A model generated the notes under the pieces. The model ran no database searches. It had not been told where the DNA came from and saw only the letters and a program-made list of their open reading frames with translations. 64,000 bases of DNA, from assembly GCF_056712565.1 (NCBI RefSeq), contig NZ_CM160072.1; one strand, written 5' to 3'. Positions 6,832 to 42,645 of the stretch are shown one piece after another. The first letter of the stretch is position 1. Each line of letters opens with the position of its first letter. Position numbers and translations under genes: made by a program.

Positions 6832-6916
6832 GCCGAAGTGGCGAAATCGGTAGACGCAGTTGATTCAAAATCAACCGTAGAAATACGTGCCGGTTCGAGT
6901 CCGGCCTTCGGCACCA
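6832..6916 (+). tRNA. leuX: tRNA-Leu (anticodon CAA), 85 nt with encoded CCA end
   Basis: GCCGAAGTGGCGAAATCGGTAGACGCAGTTGATTCAAAATCAACC...GGTTCGAGTCCGGCCTTCGGCACCA: class II tRNA with long variable arm, anticodon loop TTCAAAA. Confidence 0.95.
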
Positions 6917-7176: not shown

Positions 7177-8367
7177 ATGCATCTGCTTGTCCATCCAAAT
7201 GGTTCTAAGTACTGGCGTTTGCAGTACCGTTATGAGGGAAAGCAAAAAATGCTGGCACTTGGGGTTTATCCTGAAATCACACTAGCGGATGCCAGAGTAC
7301 GTCGTGACGAGACGCGTAAGCTGCTTGCGAATGGCGTCGATCCGGGAGACAAAAAGAAAAATGATAAGGTTGAACAGAGTAAAGCACGAACCTTTAAAGA
7401 AGTCGCGATTGAGTGGCATGGCACCAATAAAAAGTGGTCTGAAGATCACGCCCATCGTGTGCTAAAAAGTCTTGAAGATAATCTTTTTGCAGCGCTTGGT
7501 GAACGTAATATCGCTGAGTTAAAAACTCGAGATTTATTAGCACCTATTAAGGCCGTAGAAATGTCTGGACGTCTTGAAGTGGCCGCTCGTCTTCAGCAGC
7601 GCACTACAGCCATCATGCGCTATGCAGTGCAAAGTGGGTTAATTGATTATAACCCGGCACAAGAGATGGCTGGGGCGGTTGCTTCCTGTAATCGACAACA
7701 TCGTCCCGCGCTTGAATTAAAGCGCATCCCTGAGTTGCTTACAAAAATAGATAGCTATACTGGTAGGCCGCTAACCCGATGGGCGATAGAACTCACTTTG
7801 CTGATCTTTATTCGGTCCAGTGAGCTGCGTTTTGCTCGTTGGTCAGAGATCGATTTCGAAGCGTCTATATGGACTATCCCACCGGAGCGGGAGCCTATTC
7901 CTGGAGTGAAACATTCCCATAGAGGCTCAAAAATGCGTACAACGCATCTAGTGCCTCTTTCAACGCAAGCTCTTGCAATTTTAAAGCAGATAAAACAGTT
8001 TTATGGGGCCCATGACTTGATATTTATTGGTGATCACGATTCGCACAAACCCATGAGTGAGAATACGGTAAATAGTGCGTTACGGGTCATGGGGTATGAT
8101 ACAAAAGTAGAGGTTTGTGGTCATGGCTTTCGAACAATGGCCTGTAGTTCATTGGTCGAATCAGGTCTGTGGTCTCGTGATGCTGTTGAACGCCAGATGA
8201 GCCACATGGCGCGAAATTCAGTGAGGGCCGCGTATATCCATAAAGCAGAGCATCTGGAAGAACGGCGATTGATGCTACAGTGGTGGGCCGATTTTCTGGA
8301 TGTAAACAGAGAAAGGTTTATCAGTCCATTTGAATATGCAAAGATTAATAATCCATTAAAACAGTAA
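7177..8367 (+). CDS. intB: P4-type tyrosine integrase; intact ORF begins at internal ATG because the native start (ATG 7102) is followed by an in-frame TAG at 7156-7158
   Basis: 396-aa ORF with tyrosine-recombinase C-terminal region (HGFRTMACSSL...RAAYIHKAE); upstream in-frame MALTDIKVRAAKPTDKQY-stop-LTDGGG is the typical P4-integrase N-terminus; directly downstream of tRNA. Confidence 0.85.
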   Translation: MHLLVHPNGSKYWRLQYRYEGKQKMLALGVYPEITLADARVRRDETRKLLANGVDPGDKKKNDKVEQSKARTFKEVAIEWHGTNKKWSEDHAHRVLKSLEDNLFAALGERNIAELKTRDLLAPIKAVEMSGRLEVAARLQQRTTAIMRYAVQSGLIDYNPAQEMAGAVASCNRQHRPALELKRIPELLTKIDSYTGRPLTRWAIELTLLIFIRSSELRFARWSEIDFEASIWTIPPEREPIPGVKHSHRGSKMRTTHLVPLSTQALAILKQIKQFYGAHDLIFIGDHDSHKPMSENTVNSALRVMGYDTKVEVCGHGFRTMACSSLVESGLWSRDAVERQMSHMARNSVRAAYIHKAEHLEERRLMLQWWADFLDVNRERFISPFEYAKINNPLKQ

Positions 8368-8389: not shown

Positions 8390-8539
8390 AATTATTCTAG
8401 GATTATTTTCTTTGTTAAAAAAGACAAACGGTATTAACTGATGTATTTACTATTTACCGCTCCCTGCAGGGGGGATTATCAGAATCCGCGGTTATTCATT
8501 ATTTATATACATTCAATAAAAAAGTAACTGGATTTGCCC

Positions 8540-9445
8540 CTATATTTCCAGACACCTGTTATCACTTAACCCATTACTGGCTTGCTGCCGTAGATATTCC
8601 CGTGGCGAGCGATAACCCAGTGCACTATGCGGATGCCATTCGTTATAATGCTCGAACGCCTCTGCAAGGTTCTTTGCTGCCGTTAACCCGTCTGGTTTGG
8701 GCATGACACTGATGTAGTCACGCTTTATCGTTTTCACGAAGCTCTCTGCTATGCCGTTACTCTCCGGACTCCGCACCGCCGTGCTCTTCGGTTCAAGCCC
8801 CAACATCCGGGCAAACTGCCGTGTTTCATTAGCCCGGTAGCATGAACCATTATCCGTCAGCCACTCTACTGGAGACGCCGGAAGCTCGTTGCCGAAGCGG
8901 CGTTCCACCGCTCCCAGCATGACGTCCTGTACTGTTTCACTGTTGAAGCCGCCCGTAGTGACCGCCCAGTGCAGTGCCTCACGGTCACAGCAGTCCAGCG
9001 CGAACGTGACTCGCAGTTTTTCTCCGTTATCACAGCGGAACTCGAACCCGTCAGAGCACCATCGCTGATTACTTTCTTTCACAGCCACTCTGCCTGTATG
9101 TGCCCGTTTCGATGGCGGTACAGCAGGTTTTCGCTCAAGCAACAGCGCATTCTGGCGCATGATCCGGTAAACACGTTTGGCATTGATCGCAGGCATACCA
9201 TCAAGTTCTGCCTGTCTGCGAAGCAGCGCCCATACCCGACGATAACCATACGTGGGCAGCTCTCCGATAACATGGTGTATACGGAGAAGCACATCCGTAT
9301 CATCAGTGTGACGACTGCGGCGGCCATCCATCCAGTCATCGGTTCGTCTGAGAATGACGTGCAACTGCGCACGCGACACCCGGAGACAACGGCTGACTAA
9401 GCTTACTCCCCATCCCCGGGCAATAAGGGCGCGTGCGCTATCCAC
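8540..9445 (-). CDS. insD: IS2 transposase OrfB (InsD)
   Basis: 301-aa ORF, IS3-family DDE transposase (…[25 protein letters not shown]…). Confidence 0.9.
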
Positions 9446-9768
9446 TTTTTTGCCCGTCCATATTCAACGGCTTCTTTGAGGAGTTCATTTTCCATCGTTT
9501 TCTTGCCGAGCAGGCGCTGGAGTTCTTTAATCTGCTTCATGGCGGCAGCAAGTTCAGAGGCAGGAACAACCTGTTCTCCGGCGGCGACAGCAGTAAGACT
9601 TCCTTCCTGGTATTGCTTACGCCAGAGAAATAACTGGCTGGCTGCTACACCATGTTGCCGGGCAACGAGGGAGACCGTCATCCCTGGTTCAAAGCTCTGC
9701 TGAACAATTGCGATCTTTTCCTGTGTGGTACGCCGTCTGCGTTTCTCCGGTCCTAAGACATCAATCAT
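9403..9768 (-). CDS. insC: IS2 OrfA (InsC), HTH protein
   Basis: ORF 9403..9813; start set at [24 protein letters not shown] (121 aa); overlaps insD in the usual frameshift arrangement. Confidence 0.85.
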
Positions 9769-10103
9769 CTGCTCTCCAATGACTAGTCTAAAAACTAGTA
9801 TTAAGACTATCACTTAAATAAGTGATATTGGTTGTCTGGAGATTCAGGGGGCCAGTCTAGTAACCTCATAAAAAATCCTGTACTCACAGGGTGATGCGGG
9901 ATAACTGACGTAAGGAGTGCTGCAGGGATTTGATGGTCCCTTGTGCTGATATGAATACGGATATTTTATACAGAATACTTTTCAGTACAAGCGACTGTAT
10001 TACAGTCTGCCATATATGATTACCTGTGATCAGGAAGAATAAGTGGCTGAGGTTTCAAACTGTCTGCCGGTATATTCCTCTCTCCCTTAAAAACCATAAC
10101 AGG

Positions 10104-11325
10104 TTAGTTATCTTCGTCTGTCAGCGGATTGAATGGCGGTATATTTTCAGTACAAATACCGGTCATCCACTGAAAAATACCTGCGAAATGACGGGCACTG
10201 ATTTTTCTACTGACGGGCTGATGAGACGTTATGTCACTGGCGGTAATAATCAGTGGCACACTGTAGCCTCCCTGCACATGACCATAATGATGAACAGGAT
10301 TGGCACTGTCGCTGACCGACAGCCCAAGGCCAGAAAAGTAAAGCATGGCGAAATGACGTGAGTACCGGCGAAGGATACCATCAAGCTGGCCAAGAAAGTT
10401 ATCCAGTTTACTGATGCTGGCGAGGTAACAGGCAATTTTTCGGGGATACTGCTCCAGGTAATTATTCGGCTAGGAGTTAAGGCTGTCACACGGATTTGGA
10501 TGAGAACCCATCATGTGCAGGAAAATTATCTTCGGAGAGGATGTATCCGCCAGCGCACGTTCTGTTTCCTGTAACAACAGTTTGTCATCTGTTTTACGGG
10601 AAGCGAAGCTGCCTTTCTTGAGGAAAGTGGCATGCTCCGCATCAGAAGCAATAACAGAGATGCGTGTGTCATGCCCCCCAGTTTTCCTTGATTGGATATC
10701 CACCATGTGCTGTATCCTGCTTTTGCTGCCAGCGCCACCACATTGTTGCCGGAATCAGGGTTCTGCTCATAGTCATAAATCAGTGTCCGGCTCAGGGAAG
10801 ACACTGTACTGGAGGCTGTCGAGGTATAATCGTCAATAAATAAACCGGGTGCCGTATTCAGCCACGGTGTGGTTGGTACGGGATAGTCATACACTGACAT
10901 ATAATCCCTGCGCACACTCTCACCAGTGACAATAACAATCGTATCATATAACGGTGCTCCCGGCTGGATTTTCCAGTTGTCAGCCCCGTGCTACTCAGTT
11001 GTTCATAACGCTGCATTTCACGTAATGTGTCAGTTGTCCCCACAACTGTTCCTTTAACCATCCGCAATGGCCAACGGTTTACAGAGCATAATACGAATAG
11101 CCGTAGAGCCAGCCAGTTACGGTGGTCGCGATGGTGTGTCCGCCAGAAAATCACCACGAATACCAGAATCGCGGCACTGACCAGAAAATGATAAACAGGA
11201 AACACGGGGCGGTTCACTTTGCTTTCTCCTGTAGTGTTTTCTGTAGGTTCTGAACCGGTTCTAGCGGGGTTGTGAGGCTGATGGCAATCGCCGGGCTCTT
11301 CCTGCATGTTACACTGGTACTGCAA
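10104..11325 (-). pseudogene. yjgX: Decayed phosphoethanolamine-transferase/sulfatase-family gene (yjgX-like), broken into at least 5 frame-shifted fragments
   Basis: Consecutive minus-strand ORF fragments (80, 79, 78, 129, 155 aa) in different frames; sulfatase-type motif IIFLHMMGSHPNP; a TM segment in the N-terminal fragment. Confidence 0.6.
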
Positions 11326-11685
11326 GAGGGGGCCTTCGCTCCTCTGACATTACTCAGTATTTTCACTACTACACCCCATCTGCCATCCATAACAACCGAT
11401 TCACCCCCTCGCGAGGCGTTGTTGCCCGTCACCCGGACAGACACCGTTATGGATTTCTCTTGTTGCACGATCGATCAATTGTTATGCATGCTGACACCAC
11501 AACCCCGGTGGGTATGACCGATGCCTTTCTCACTCTCTTCCCGGTCATCGTCGGCCTTCCCCGTTATTGTGGCGTGTCAGCACCCTCGACGGCATTTCGA
11601 TGGCTGCTCAGTGTTCACTCACGTTACGGCCCGCATAACCCGTTGACTTCCTGAAGAAGTCGTTTCAGGGAGAGATTCAGCCCTT

Positions 11686-12015
11686 TTGTTACCTCCTGGA
11701 CCGCTTCTTGTCCTTCCAGTCGGAGCGAGAGTTAGCCGGGGCGGACTTTCACCGACGGAAAGATCGTGCATTTCAAGGCACACACAACAATATCTGCGAG
11801 CGTGCTATCCGTCCGGTCGTTATGGGACGAAAGGCCTGGTTGTTCGCTGGTTCACTGGTGGCCGGGAACCGCGCGGCACAGATAATGAGCCTTCTGGGAA
11901 CCGCAGTCTGGAGCCACATGCTTGGCTGACGGACGTCCTGACGCGTCTGCCGGAGTGGCCGGAGGAGAGGTTGGCTGAGTTACTGCCTCTTGAGGGCTTT
12001 ACCTTCTTCGGGTAA
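11686..12015 (+). CDS. yjgZ: 109-aa ORF that is a C-terminal remnant of an IS66-family transposase (yjgZ-like)
   Basis: Overlapping frames carry NNICERAIRPVVMGRKAWLFAGS and WLTDVLTRLPEWPEERLAELLP, both IS66 TnpC C-terminal signatures; frame-shifted. Confidence 0.45.
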   Translation: MLPPGPLLVLPVGARVSRGGLSPTERSCISRHTQQYLRACYPSGRYGTKGLVVRWFTGGREPRGTDNEPSGNRSLEPHAWLTDVLTRLPEWPEERLAELLPLEGFTFFG

Positions 12016-12503
12016 GTGATACCTGCCGTCAGGTGTTTGTGCACCGGGCCATAACCTGCAGTTGGGAATTGAACGCCTGACAACAGGAAATGAGCTAGAG
12101 CAGTAAACACGCGGGCTGACAATGGGTCAGAATATGAGTTAGCCCGGCGTTATTCCTGGGGTCAGTACTTCAGATCTAGCCTCCGGTACCAGACTAGCTA
12201 GCCCCTACGCAACCAAATAAATCAACCATCGTCAGAGTGCAATCGTTCATATACACTGTCGGTGATGCGCTAAAAAATGCGTTAATGTTGAGTTCCTCGA
12301 ACCCTTACCAATTAAGGGACATAGCCAGATACGCAACTGGCTGATGCAAGCAGTCTAATGTCTTTAGATCCGCTGGCCTGCGGGCATGACAATGTCAAAC
12401 AGTCAAAGATTGTGGCGTTGACGGTCAGTCTTGGGGACAAAAAAGCTCAGTATTCTCGTTGGCAACCAGATAATTTAACAGTTGATGCTGAAACGAAATA
12501 GGC

Positions 12504-12515
12504 ATCTTGGTTCTG
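12504..12515. repeat. Left copy of 12-bp IS4 target-site duplication ATCTTGGTTCTG
   Basis: Identical 12-mer directly abuts both IS4 ends. Confidence 0.85.
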
Positions 12516-13941
12516 TAATGCCAGTCAGTTAAGCAACTGACTGGCTCTTTTTCGGGGCTGTGGGGTATTTCCAGGGCCTCTCCTTTACCACTCTCGGGAA
12601 GGCCCTTTCCCTTCTTGTCGGTAATTTCACAAGTTGTCCCATACTTGCAAGATCGCGCATCAGCTCCGGTATACGTCCCGGTGAAGCGCCCTGCAATGTT
12701 ATCAGCATTCTCATCACCATTCCGCATGATTCTGAGAAACTCAGTTGATTCGGCCAGTAACCTTTCAGATGTTCCGCCATTTTAATCATCTGATATCTCA
12801 CCAGATTATAAGCCAGTAAGACACCCCACAGCTCTTGCTCCACAAGCTCCGGCTTTTTACTTCTCAGCGTCAGCCTGCTCCGTTGCATCGTCTGTTTTAT
12901 CTCCCTGTATCCCAGTTCGATTTCCCAGCGATGACTGTACAGATCCCCCATTTCTCCTCCGGGGAAGCGCATGGCGTCCGTCATCGACGTCAGCAGATGG
13001 CAGACTTTTCCTTTGCGCGTCACGGTCAGCAGGCGGGCAGTCACTTCATTTCCCAGTCCCGGCCACTTTTTTCGTGCCTGCGGGCTGGTTTTCAGCTTCA
13101 CCAGATGATCGCCTTTACCCAGTTTTCTGATCTCTTCATATTGCGCTCCCTTTCTGAGAGGTATCATCCAGTGGCGGTGTTCTCCCGCCAGGCTCCAGGC
13201 ATTTAACAGTCCCAGTGAGTAATAACCTTTATCCATTAACGTCAGAGTGTTATCGCCGGTTTGTTCTATAAGTTGCTCAGCAAGCTCATTTTCGCTGTTC
13301 TTCATCGTGCCGAAGGCTGCAGCCGTCAGCAGATGGCTGGTCAGTTCCATCTGGCAGACCATTTTGACCTGCGGGTAGAGCGCCGGGTTCCCGGCATGTG
13401 TCTGGCGGGGGAAGGCTGCATCGTTCTCTGGTGTATCCGGTGTGCGCCAGAACACACCATCGATGGCCAGCAGGGTCAGGCCGCACCAGTGCGGATGCGG
13501 CGTGGCGTTATGCCAGAGCTGCGCTGTTTTCGTGAACACGCGGCGGACAGCCTCACTTCCCAGGCGCTGGCGGGCCTGAATAACGGCACTGGGGGCAACG
13601 AAGGGGCGATTGCCCGGCAGCATGATGTCCAGGCGATTCACAATCTGGTGAAGAGGTTCTTTACGCTCAAGCGCCATGCCAACAATACACCAGACCATCA
13701 TTTCGAGGGGAAGACGGCGCTTGCGTAGCGTTACAGTACCTGATTCGGCAAGGCAACGAGAGATGAGTTCGGGGTCGAGGTAATCCCCCAGAGAAGTCAG
13801 TGGGTTACGCAGAGAATCGTAACGGGATACCAGATCAAGAGCCTGTCCAATGTGCATAAAAAAATCCGGAAACAAGTGAGCGTTTCCGGATTCTTACACA
13901 GCCACTGGATCGGTCAACTGATCCTTAACTGATCGGCATTA
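12516..13941 (-). mobile_element. IS4 insertion sequence (1426 bp) with 18-bp terminal inverted repeats
   Basis: Ends TAATGCCAGTCAGTTAAG ... CTTAACTGATCGGCATTA; length 1426 bp; encodes the IS4 transposase. Confidence 0.9.
12529..13857 (-). CDS. insG: IS4 transposase (InsG)
   Basis: ORF 12529..13875; start set at [16 protein letters not shown] (442 aa); DDE transposase. Confidence 0.9.
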
Positions 13942-42274: not shown

Positions 42275-42392
42275 ACAGTCCGCCAGGGAAATGCCTGATA
42301 ACATTACGTTAACCAACTGAAAACATGACACAAACCCCTCATACTCCTCCTGTTTCTCTTGCGTGACCGCCTTGTCGTTAATAGAATAAAAC

Positions 42393-42428
42393 GATCGATA
42401 AAACAGGTATCGATCGTTACTATCGATC
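42393..42428 (+). promoter_or_regulatory. Antigen 43 phase-variation switch: three GATC (Dam) sites, expected to overlap the OxyR site
   Basis: GATC at 42393, 42412 and 42425 (spacing 19 and 13 bp) about 220 bp upstream of the flu start codon. Confidence 0.65.
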
Positions 42429-42645
42429 GTTTATAGTGGTTAATGGTCTGCGAAAAGGCAGCTGAATCTCTTCATCATGCAGAACGGAATTGCACACAAC
42501 GGACTGATACTTCTCTGGCGGATGAGAGAGGGGAAGCATTTATGTCCGGGAAAAACCACTTTATCTGAGCATGCTGTTTTGTACCTGCCGGTATCCACAT
42601 TTGTGGGTACCGGCTTTTTTATTCACCCTCTGTAAGGAAAAGCTG

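Follow-up and report, generated by a model that had tools for sequence, protein, structure and literature searches.

Which gene gave rise to the interrupted minus-strand reading frames that lie beside a P4-type integrase in this Escherichia coli chromosome, where does that gene begin and end, and does any function survive in it? The window considered here, a stretch of 64,000 nucleotides from contig NZ_CM160072.1 (assembly GCF_056712565.1), was initially annotated as carrying a decayed phosphoethanolamine-transferase-like gene at 10104-11325, represented by at least five consecutive fragments in different frames and interpreted as the relic of a lipid A or glucan modifying enzyme. The core of this reading, a decayed sulfatase-fold phosphoethanolamine-transferase gene on the minus strand, is borne out by tblastn, blastn, the Pfam Sulfatase family, the PGAP annotation and the yjgX gene of K-12. 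The minus-strand sequence between 10020 and 11204 is almost certainly the E. coli pseudogene yjgX, the defunct remains of an OpgE-like phosphoethanolamine transferase of the inner membrane that was carried on a genomic island. The locus is already known, as yjgX is catalogued and annotated as a pseudogene (K-12 b4575), and the finding is real but ordinary.

The identification rests on comparison with intact relatives. Scanned singly against Pfam, the six listed open reading frames gave weak or partial sulfatase matches (1.9e-9 for 10526-10915, 5e-4 for 10470-10706 and 0.035 for 10104-10346), and two of them, 10250-10489 and 11214-11468, gave no such match in this ORF-by-ORF scan; it was the frame-aware comparison with an intact homologue that decided the matter. 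Frameshift-aware alignment, the check proposed with the initial annotation, returned collinear matches throughout. In blastn, nucleotides 314-1500 of the intact gene align with window positions 11204-10020 as a single 1187-nt alignment with 91.6% nucleotide identity and two 1-nt gaps, while tblastn of the intact protein yields one HSP in each of the frames -3, -2 and -1 (137, 207 and 401 bits), all in collinear order. After repair of the frame, the translation of the relic matches Pfam Sulfatase (PF00884) at 2.2e-32. The relic is collinear with each of the intact references, WP_016231426.1 (strain 30EVA2, L002:5165-6664, minus strand), WP_001026224.1 (strain 536) and WP_310984757.1, and the sequence homology is far beyond chance. 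PGAP labels the gene 'phosphoethanolamine transferase; frameshifted; internal stop; incomplete; missing N-terminus', and the PGAP pseudogene of strain 104, whose sequence is identical there, maps onto window positions 10020-11202. The relic region is 100% identical in several complete E. coli chromosomes, strain 104 among them, and 1066 complete E. coli records, the K-12 reference being one, match it with an identity of 99% or higher.

Several particulars of the initial annotation change under this comparison. Four of its five fragments derive, in collinear order, from one and the same gene and so are not mutually unrelated, but they occupy three frames rather than five; the remaining one, ORF 10250-10489, lies in the wrong frame and matches neither a Pfam family nor the intact protein. 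The frameshifts that had been postulated are real, but there are two of them: 10470-10706, 10104-10346 and 10020-10097 all lie in a single frame, which the stop codons TAG and TAA interrupt. Sulfatase motifs, which had been ascribed to the fragments in general, are found by Pfam on three of them, while 10858-11325 encodes membrane helices 4 and 5 instead. The extent also shifts at both ends. Position 10104, given as the lower limit, belongs to an internal TAA, and the last 27 codons leading to the native stop were missed; the upper limit of 11325 overshoots by about 120 nt into an unrelated IS repeat and a group II intron, since no stop codon closes ORF 10858-11325 where the homology ends. A relic reaching up to 11325 is ruled out, as homology stops at 11204. 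The coordinates of the relic, its lesions and its surroundings are collected in Table 1.

Table 1. The yjgX relic, its lesions and neighbouring features, in window coordinates. Codon numbers are those of the intact 499-aa homologue.
Feature	Position	Strand	Basis and remarks
tRNA-Leu(CAA) leuX, island edge	6832-6916	+	ARAGORN
P4-type integrase intB, island edge	7177-8367	+	ORF list, annotations
IS2, 1331 bp, in the integrase-yjgX intergenic region	8529-9859	-	97.7% identity to K-12 IS2K
Whole yjgX relic	10020-11204	-	Codons 105-499 and native stop of the intact 499-aa OpgE-like enzyme; blastn
Codons 473-499 (last 27) and native stop TAA (10020-10022), frame C	10020-10103	-	Alignment, codon walk
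Nonsense change GAA to TAA, codon 472	10104-10106	-	Codon walk
Frame C continued, codons 351-471	10107-10469	-	tblastn; Pfam on ORF 10104-10346
Codons 397-398, GAC CAT (Asp-His) to GGC CTT (Gly-Leu), SDHG to SGLG	10326-10331	-	Codon walk
Nonsense change TGG to TAG, codon 350	10470-10472	-	Codon walk; common to K-12, absent from LR-17-1
Frame C segment, codons 283-349	10473-10674	-	tblastn frame -1; Pfam on ORF 10470-10706
Frameshift 2, 1-bp deletion, A of GAG codon 282, makes a GGGGGG run	between 10674 and 10675	-	Codon walk
Frame B segment, codons 176-282, start of sulfatase domain	10675-10992	-	tblastn frame -2; Pfam
Frameshift 1, 1-bp deletion, C of CAG codon 176	between 10992 and 10993	-	Codon walk
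Frame A segment, codons 105-175, membrane helices 4 and 5 and linker	10993-11204	-	tblastn frame -3, codon walk, hydrophobicity
IS3-family (presumably IS629-like) terminal inverted repeat, 21 nt, 5' junction	11196-11216	-	Pattern search
Group II intron 5' fragment, about 570 nt, GTGTG 5' end at 11783	11217-11783	-	Rfam, blastn
yjgZ	11686-12015		Annotated ORF
IS66-family element 3' end, frameshifted transposase C-terminus, site of the intron insertion	11784-12190	+	Pfam DDE_Tnp_IS66, DDE_Tnp_IS66_C
IS4 transposase	12529-13875		ORF list

The surroundings of the relic agree with this assignment. The order leuX, intB, IS2, yjgX, yjgZ, IS4 in the window is the order of K-12, in which insG of IS4 and then nanX follow. 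The yjgX gene of K-12 MG1655 (b4575, NC_000913.3 4499593-4500791) occupies the same syntenic locus, at the edge of the leuX genomic island, and is 99.9% identical; over window positions 9939-12140 the two sequences show two differences, only one of which, the deletion in codon 282, falls within the relic. The two copies have in common the truncation junction (nt 314), the codon-176 deletion, TAG350, TAA472 and the replacement of Asp-His by Gly-Leu, and the window allele differs from that of K-12 by the one extra frameshift, the A deleted in codon 282. The IS2 of the window sits 160 nt downstream of the stop codon of the relic, which is 80 bp further away than in K-12, and in the opposite orientation; its overlapping flanks suggest a 5-bp target duplication.

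What remains of the enzyme after these lesions? The reading frame of the relic contains two frameshifts and two premature stops, and its native start is absent together with the first 313 nt (104 codons) of the intact gene. The N-terminus of the intact protein comprises five hydrophobic stretches, the first three of which are taken by the truncation, leaving the relic without a complete N-terminal membrane domain; the match to EptA_B_N is found only in the intact homologue. The catalytic set is likewise incomplete: the frame B segment keeps the GES metal-ligand motif and an STV motif whose Thr aligns with the nucleophile, but the Asp-His pair is gone. Codons 397-398, where this pair was replaced, align with the Asp-His of the SDHG motif of EptC (5zzu) and MCR-1 (5k4p), and SDHG is conserved in both. 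The Asp and His of this motif are metal ligands in the MCR-1 and EptA structures. Because it has neither a start, nor a complete membrane anchor, nor an intact frame, nor a complete metal site, the relic is enzymatically inert.

How was the 5' part of the gene lost? The sequence that now precedes codon 105 is made up of the remains of mobile elements. The repeat at 11216-11196, TGAACCGCCCCGTGTTTCCTG, has one mismatch to the terminal repeat that immediately follows an IS3-family transposase CDS in L002, and a second, exact copy of it lies at 34103-34123 in the window, where the pattern search expected 0 by chance. We take this 21-nt terminal repeat to be IS629-like. Its inner 7-9 nt match the first bases of yjgX about equally well, a microhomology that points to a microhomology-mediated deletion. 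The adjoining intron fragment matches the Rfam family RF02003 (group-II-D1D4-4) over the full model length; this match, at 11619-11758 on the minus strand, scores 69.1 bits where the gathering score is 49 and corresponds to ribozyme domains I-IV. In blastn the fragment aligns with the sequence preceding an RT gene on an Enterobacter plasmid (90% identity) and with that preceding ltrA in Azotobacter (76%), and the homology to related introns ends at 11209-11217, where the IS repeat and yjgX start. The fragment contains neither a reverse-transcriptase ORF nor domains V-VI, and the Intron_gpII search returned no match for it. Beyond the 5' end of the intron, the IS66 remnant matches the 3' end of L010, an intact element of the IS66 family, at 84% identity. 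The annotated yjgZ crosses the intron/IS66 boundary, and the 'uncharacterized protein' YjgZ of K-12 appears to be a chimeric ORF spanning it. Among the titles and abstracts listed for group II introns and IS66 in E. coli, there was nothing specific to the yjgX locus.

Since these elements are nested, an order of insertion can be proposed. An IS66-family element would initially have been present upstream of the transferase gene, and a group II intron would have inserted into its transposase gene, to be itself invaded by an IS3-family (IS629-like) element. A single deletion would then have joined the first 21 nt of this IS to codon 105 of the transferase through the 7-9 nt microhomology. Lost in this event would have been the promoter, membrane helices 1-3, the adjacent gene for an outer-membrane protein and the bulk of the mobile elements. 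We infer the single deletion and the sequence of insertions from the junction sequences, which are themselves observed.

The alleles available for comparison form a graded series. The LR-17-1 allele carries the truncation, the Gly-Leu change and TAA472; the K-12 allele has these lesions together with the codon-176 deletion, absent from LR-17-1, and TAG350; the window allele has all lesions of K-12 and the codon-282 deletion. The Gly-Leu change and TAA472 are present in all three non-mosaic K-12-type alleles compared. The series from LR-17-1 through K-12 to the window shows stepwise, ongoing decay. The last step is narrowly distributed: a 71-nt probe across the codon-282 site is at least 99% identical in 19 records only ('ecoli_genomes'), and the deletion therefore marks a small clade. 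Raised dN/dS, considered as a signal of decay, was not seen: comparing the relic with intact alleles gave 0.14-0.15, and comparing intact alleles with one another gave 0.11-0.22. The similarity of these ratios implies that both alleles still functioned during most of the 8% divergence and that inactivation was comparatively recent; there is no statistical sign of long neutral drift, and the decay is shallow. A further allele, in strain BHUCD01 (97.7% identity), is a mosaic of K-12-type and intact-type sites, which may reflect either recombination or an assembly artefact.

Could the gene nevertheless be functional, with the lesions being errors of sequencing or assembly, or bypassed by programmed recoding? 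The codon-282 deletion does lie in a G run, where sequencing is liable to homopolymer errors. However, the same lesions are found in hundreds of independent complete genomes, K-12 among them, and the codon-282 deletion itself in 19 independent assemblies; moreover, if all point lesions were repaired, the 104 N-terminal codons and the Asp-His pair would still be missing. The recurrence of the lesions and the missing N-terminus exclude this explanation for practical purposes, and we give it next to no credence. A different proposal, marginally less improbable and still very hard to sustain, is that the truncated allele was co-opted for a non-catalytic role in the membrane or periplasm, as a chimeric ORF starting from GTG 11217 and translated from signals located in the intron/IS junction. 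An AGGAG motif stands 9 nt upstream of this GTG (11217-11215), which is in frame and places 'VNRPV' ahead of helix 4, and dN/dS is low. The chimeric ORF is 119 aa long in the window. In strains of the LR-17-1 type it reaches 371 aa, and the allele of LR-17-1 itself corresponds to a predicted protein of that length (P0009) that begins with 'MNRPVFPVYHF' at the GTG corresponding to window position 11217, and this uninterrupted version represents a cluster of 501 member sequences. Yet the frame has been broken repeatedly and independently in the derived alleles of K-12 and the window, as would be expected without selection, an in-frame fusion has a chance expectation of 1 in 3, and the low dN/dS is explained by a divergence older than the inactivation. 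Nor does deletion of the gene in K-12 have a confirmed phenotype: the delta-yjgX mutant was a false positive in a screen for susceptibility to defensin, an antimicrobial peptide, and complementation had no effect (PMC4808223). It is similarly far-fetched, on our assessment, that the 371-aa product of the LR-17-1 type, with two membrane helices and a sulfatase-like domain devoid of the Asp-His pair, was retained for a while as an envelope protein lacking catalytic activity, of which the window copy would be a later, fully broken descendant. No observation speaks against the window copy being a pseudogene.

The remaining question concerns the enzyme from which this pseudogene derives, and here too there are competing candidates. 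The intact homologue belongs to a family of mostly enterobacterial proteins of about 500 aa and carries the catalytic motifs GES, Thr, GSH and SDHG; it matches Pfam Sulfatase at 1e-36 and, marginally, EptA_B_N (23.6 bits against a cut-off of 22.3). The suggestion that the relic stems from a lipid A or glucan modifying enzyme is upheld, and it can be narrowed to the OpgE-like type. OpgE (YbiP, b0815) aligns with the intact homologue end to end at 31% identity (residues 20-492 against 22-527, 240 bits, E 2e-77), and the two share the same architecture of N-terminal membrane helices and a periplasmic sulfatase domain (PMC3818809). At 31% identity OpgE is a paralogue, not an orthologue, and it is a core-genome gene located beside ompX. 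The match of YhbX to the intact homologue amounts to 105 bits and covers the catalytic domain only; EptC (5zzu), the best solved structure, reaches 67 bits (1.1e-17), and the PDB search gives MCR-1 a score of 22 bits (E about 4e-4). Because the OpgE match is much stronger than those to YhbX, EptC and MCR-1, the ancestor was probably OpgE-like: OpgE is the closest characterised relative, and the relic would descend from an OpgE-like paralogue. OpgE adds phosphoethanolamine to osmoregulated periplasmic glucans, an activity shown for OpgE itself (PMC3818809).

Descent from a lipid A enzyme of the EptA/MCR type, the type linked to polymyxin resistance, is by comparison unlikely, even though superfamily and architecture are the same, Pfam recognises EptA_B_N and sulfatase domains in the intact homologue, and some database entries call the homologues 'lipid A phosphoethanolamine transferase'. 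EptC/CptA, EptA, EptB and MCR belong to the same superfamily as the intact homologue, but it is a member of none of these subfamilies, and all NCBIfam models for CptA, EptA, EptB and MCR score far under their cut-offs on it. The best subfamily score is that of CptA, with 107.3 bits against 404, and the CptA domain model gives 81.5 against 900; the EptA models reach 37.7 bits against 660 and 57.3 against 561, and the MCR models 16-30 bits against about 1250. The contrast between 22 bits for MCR-1 and 240 for OpgE likewise favours the OpgE-like origin. Common ancestry of the ompX-opgE and tia/hek-yjgX gene pairs was also considered and set aside: OmpX resembles the Tia/Hek-like protein only weakly and locally (E 7e-5 over 53 residues), and the two pairs differ in the orientation of their genes.

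What did the locus look like before its decay? In intact islands, at leuX, pheV and other tRNA genes, the layout consists of the tRNA, a P4-type integrase, the 499-aa enzyme and a Tia/Hek-type outer-membrane protein, often followed by a pap operon. Like the relic, the intact 'putative opgE' copies of ExPEC adjoin a P4-type integrase, and in TUM12368 and 536 they are found at leuX. These copies encode an uninterrupted protein of 499 aa with five N-terminal hydrophobic helices and the SDHG motif, all of which are lost or broken in the relic, and the tia/hek-type outer-membrane-protein gene upstream of them is gone at the relic. Phosphoethanolamine transferases described as 'YjgX or YhbX' have been reported at the pheU, pheV and selC integration sites of islands (PMC6174562), and in a genome-wide association study of bloodstream infection, 'putative opgE' genes near integrases and the pap operon were associated with a urinary portal of entry (PMC8946752). 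To judge from matching description and context, the latter are presumably the same genes as the intact homologues of yjgX. Our literature search found no paper joining phosphoethanolamine transferase, leuX and pathogenicity island.

The discovery value of the relic is small, since it is a catalogued pseudogene into which metabolic engineers already integrate constructs on the chromosome (PMC9509612). The detail added here is an ancestry nearer to OpgE than to the lipid A enzymes, and a 5' truncation that can be read base by base through an IS3-family repeat, a group II intron fragment and an IS66 remnant. Recognition of YjgZ as a chimera would help to clean up annotation. The intact homologue, which stands beside pap in extraintestinal pathogenic strains and is linked to urinary entry by the association study, is a more interesting target than the relic itself.

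The sequence beyond the truncated end of the yjgX pseudogene, the relic of an OpgE-like phosphoethanolamine transferase gene, is assembled from pieces of several mobile elements. Codon 105 of yjgX is joined to the remaining 5' part of a group II intron through a 21-nt IS3-family (IS629-like) terminal inverted repeat. No copies of this repeat would be expected by chance, and the second one, elsewhere in the island, lies ~23 nt beyond the remnant of an IS3-family transposase. The intron fragment has an Rfam match of 69 bits (11619-11758), and its 5' end is GTGTG at 11783; in the K-12 reference record the intron is not annotated as a feature in the interval 11217-11783.

The yjgZ reading frame begins within this fragment, its first ~33 codons running antisense to the 5' end of the intron, and the C-terminus of its product is the C-terminal motif of an IS66 transposase (Pfam DDE_Tnp_IS66_C, 3.6e-10). 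The yjgZ frame appears to be a chimeric ORF and in all likelihood is no genuine gene. Recent papers keep counting the b4277 product as a hypothetical protein. For K-12, a study using Hfq co-immunoprecipitation reports that an RNA of ~300 nt from the yjgZ-insG interval is bound by Hfq (PMC4152368). The counterpart of that interval in the window, 12140-12530, starts approximately where the IS66-family remnant ends.

Features of the window discussed in the text
Feature	Position	Strand	Context
IS2, 1331 bp	8529-9859	-	integrase-yjgX spacer; 5-bp target duplication
IS3-family (IS629-like) terminal inverted repeat, 21 nt, copy 1	11196-11216	-	joins intron fragment to yjgX codon 105
Group II intron 5' fragment, ~570 nt	11217-11783	-	Rfam group-II-D1D4-4
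yjgZ ORF (K-12 'uncharacterized protein YjgZ', b4277)	11686-12015	+	putative intron antisense and IS66 C-terminus chimera
IS3-family (IS629-like) terminal inverted repeat, 21 nt, copy 2	34103-34123	+	elsewhere in island
IS102 RNA	42391-42627		Rfam match

On the other side of the relic, the spacer separating it from the integrase gene contains IS2 in the window, whereas strain LR-17-1, which carries a less decayed yjgX allele, has the spacer without IS2. The IS2K element of K-12 sits 80 bp further right and in the opposite orientation; the two are independent insertions into the same 320-bp spacer. The yjgX allele of strain BHUCD01 (NZ_CM183442.1), 94.8% identical to the intact gene, combines the K-12-type sites delC176 and TAA472 with the intact-type sites TGG350 and Asp397; the mixture reflects either recombination or an artefact of the assembly.

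Both OpgE of K-12 and its island-borne paralogue (loci L002, L007 and L008) adjoin a small outer-membrane-protein gene, encoding OmpX and a Tia/Hek-like protein, respectively. The similarity between these two neighbours is weak and only local (E 7e-5), and the gene orientations within the two pairs are not alike.

The gene content of ~14000-64000 was taken from coordinate mapping to strain 104, identity having been verified over 9850-11700 only. By these coordinates the region should be a KpLE2-like leuX island, in which nanX, nanY, the fecIRABCDE ferric-citrate operon, Ag43, a CbtA/YeeU toxin-antitoxin remnant, mtnK, mtnA, yjhFGHIU and the sgc genes are expected, along with many IS remnants (IS911, IS600, ISEc52, IS1 and a further IS66 transposase fragment).

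The intron fragment itself lies antisense within an IS66-family transposase gene, with the insertion point at the conserved 'DNNxCERxIR' motif. An Azotobacter plasmid carries a related intron in the same IS66 context, and the comparison suggests that introns of this lineage use IS66 transposase genes as their homing sites.
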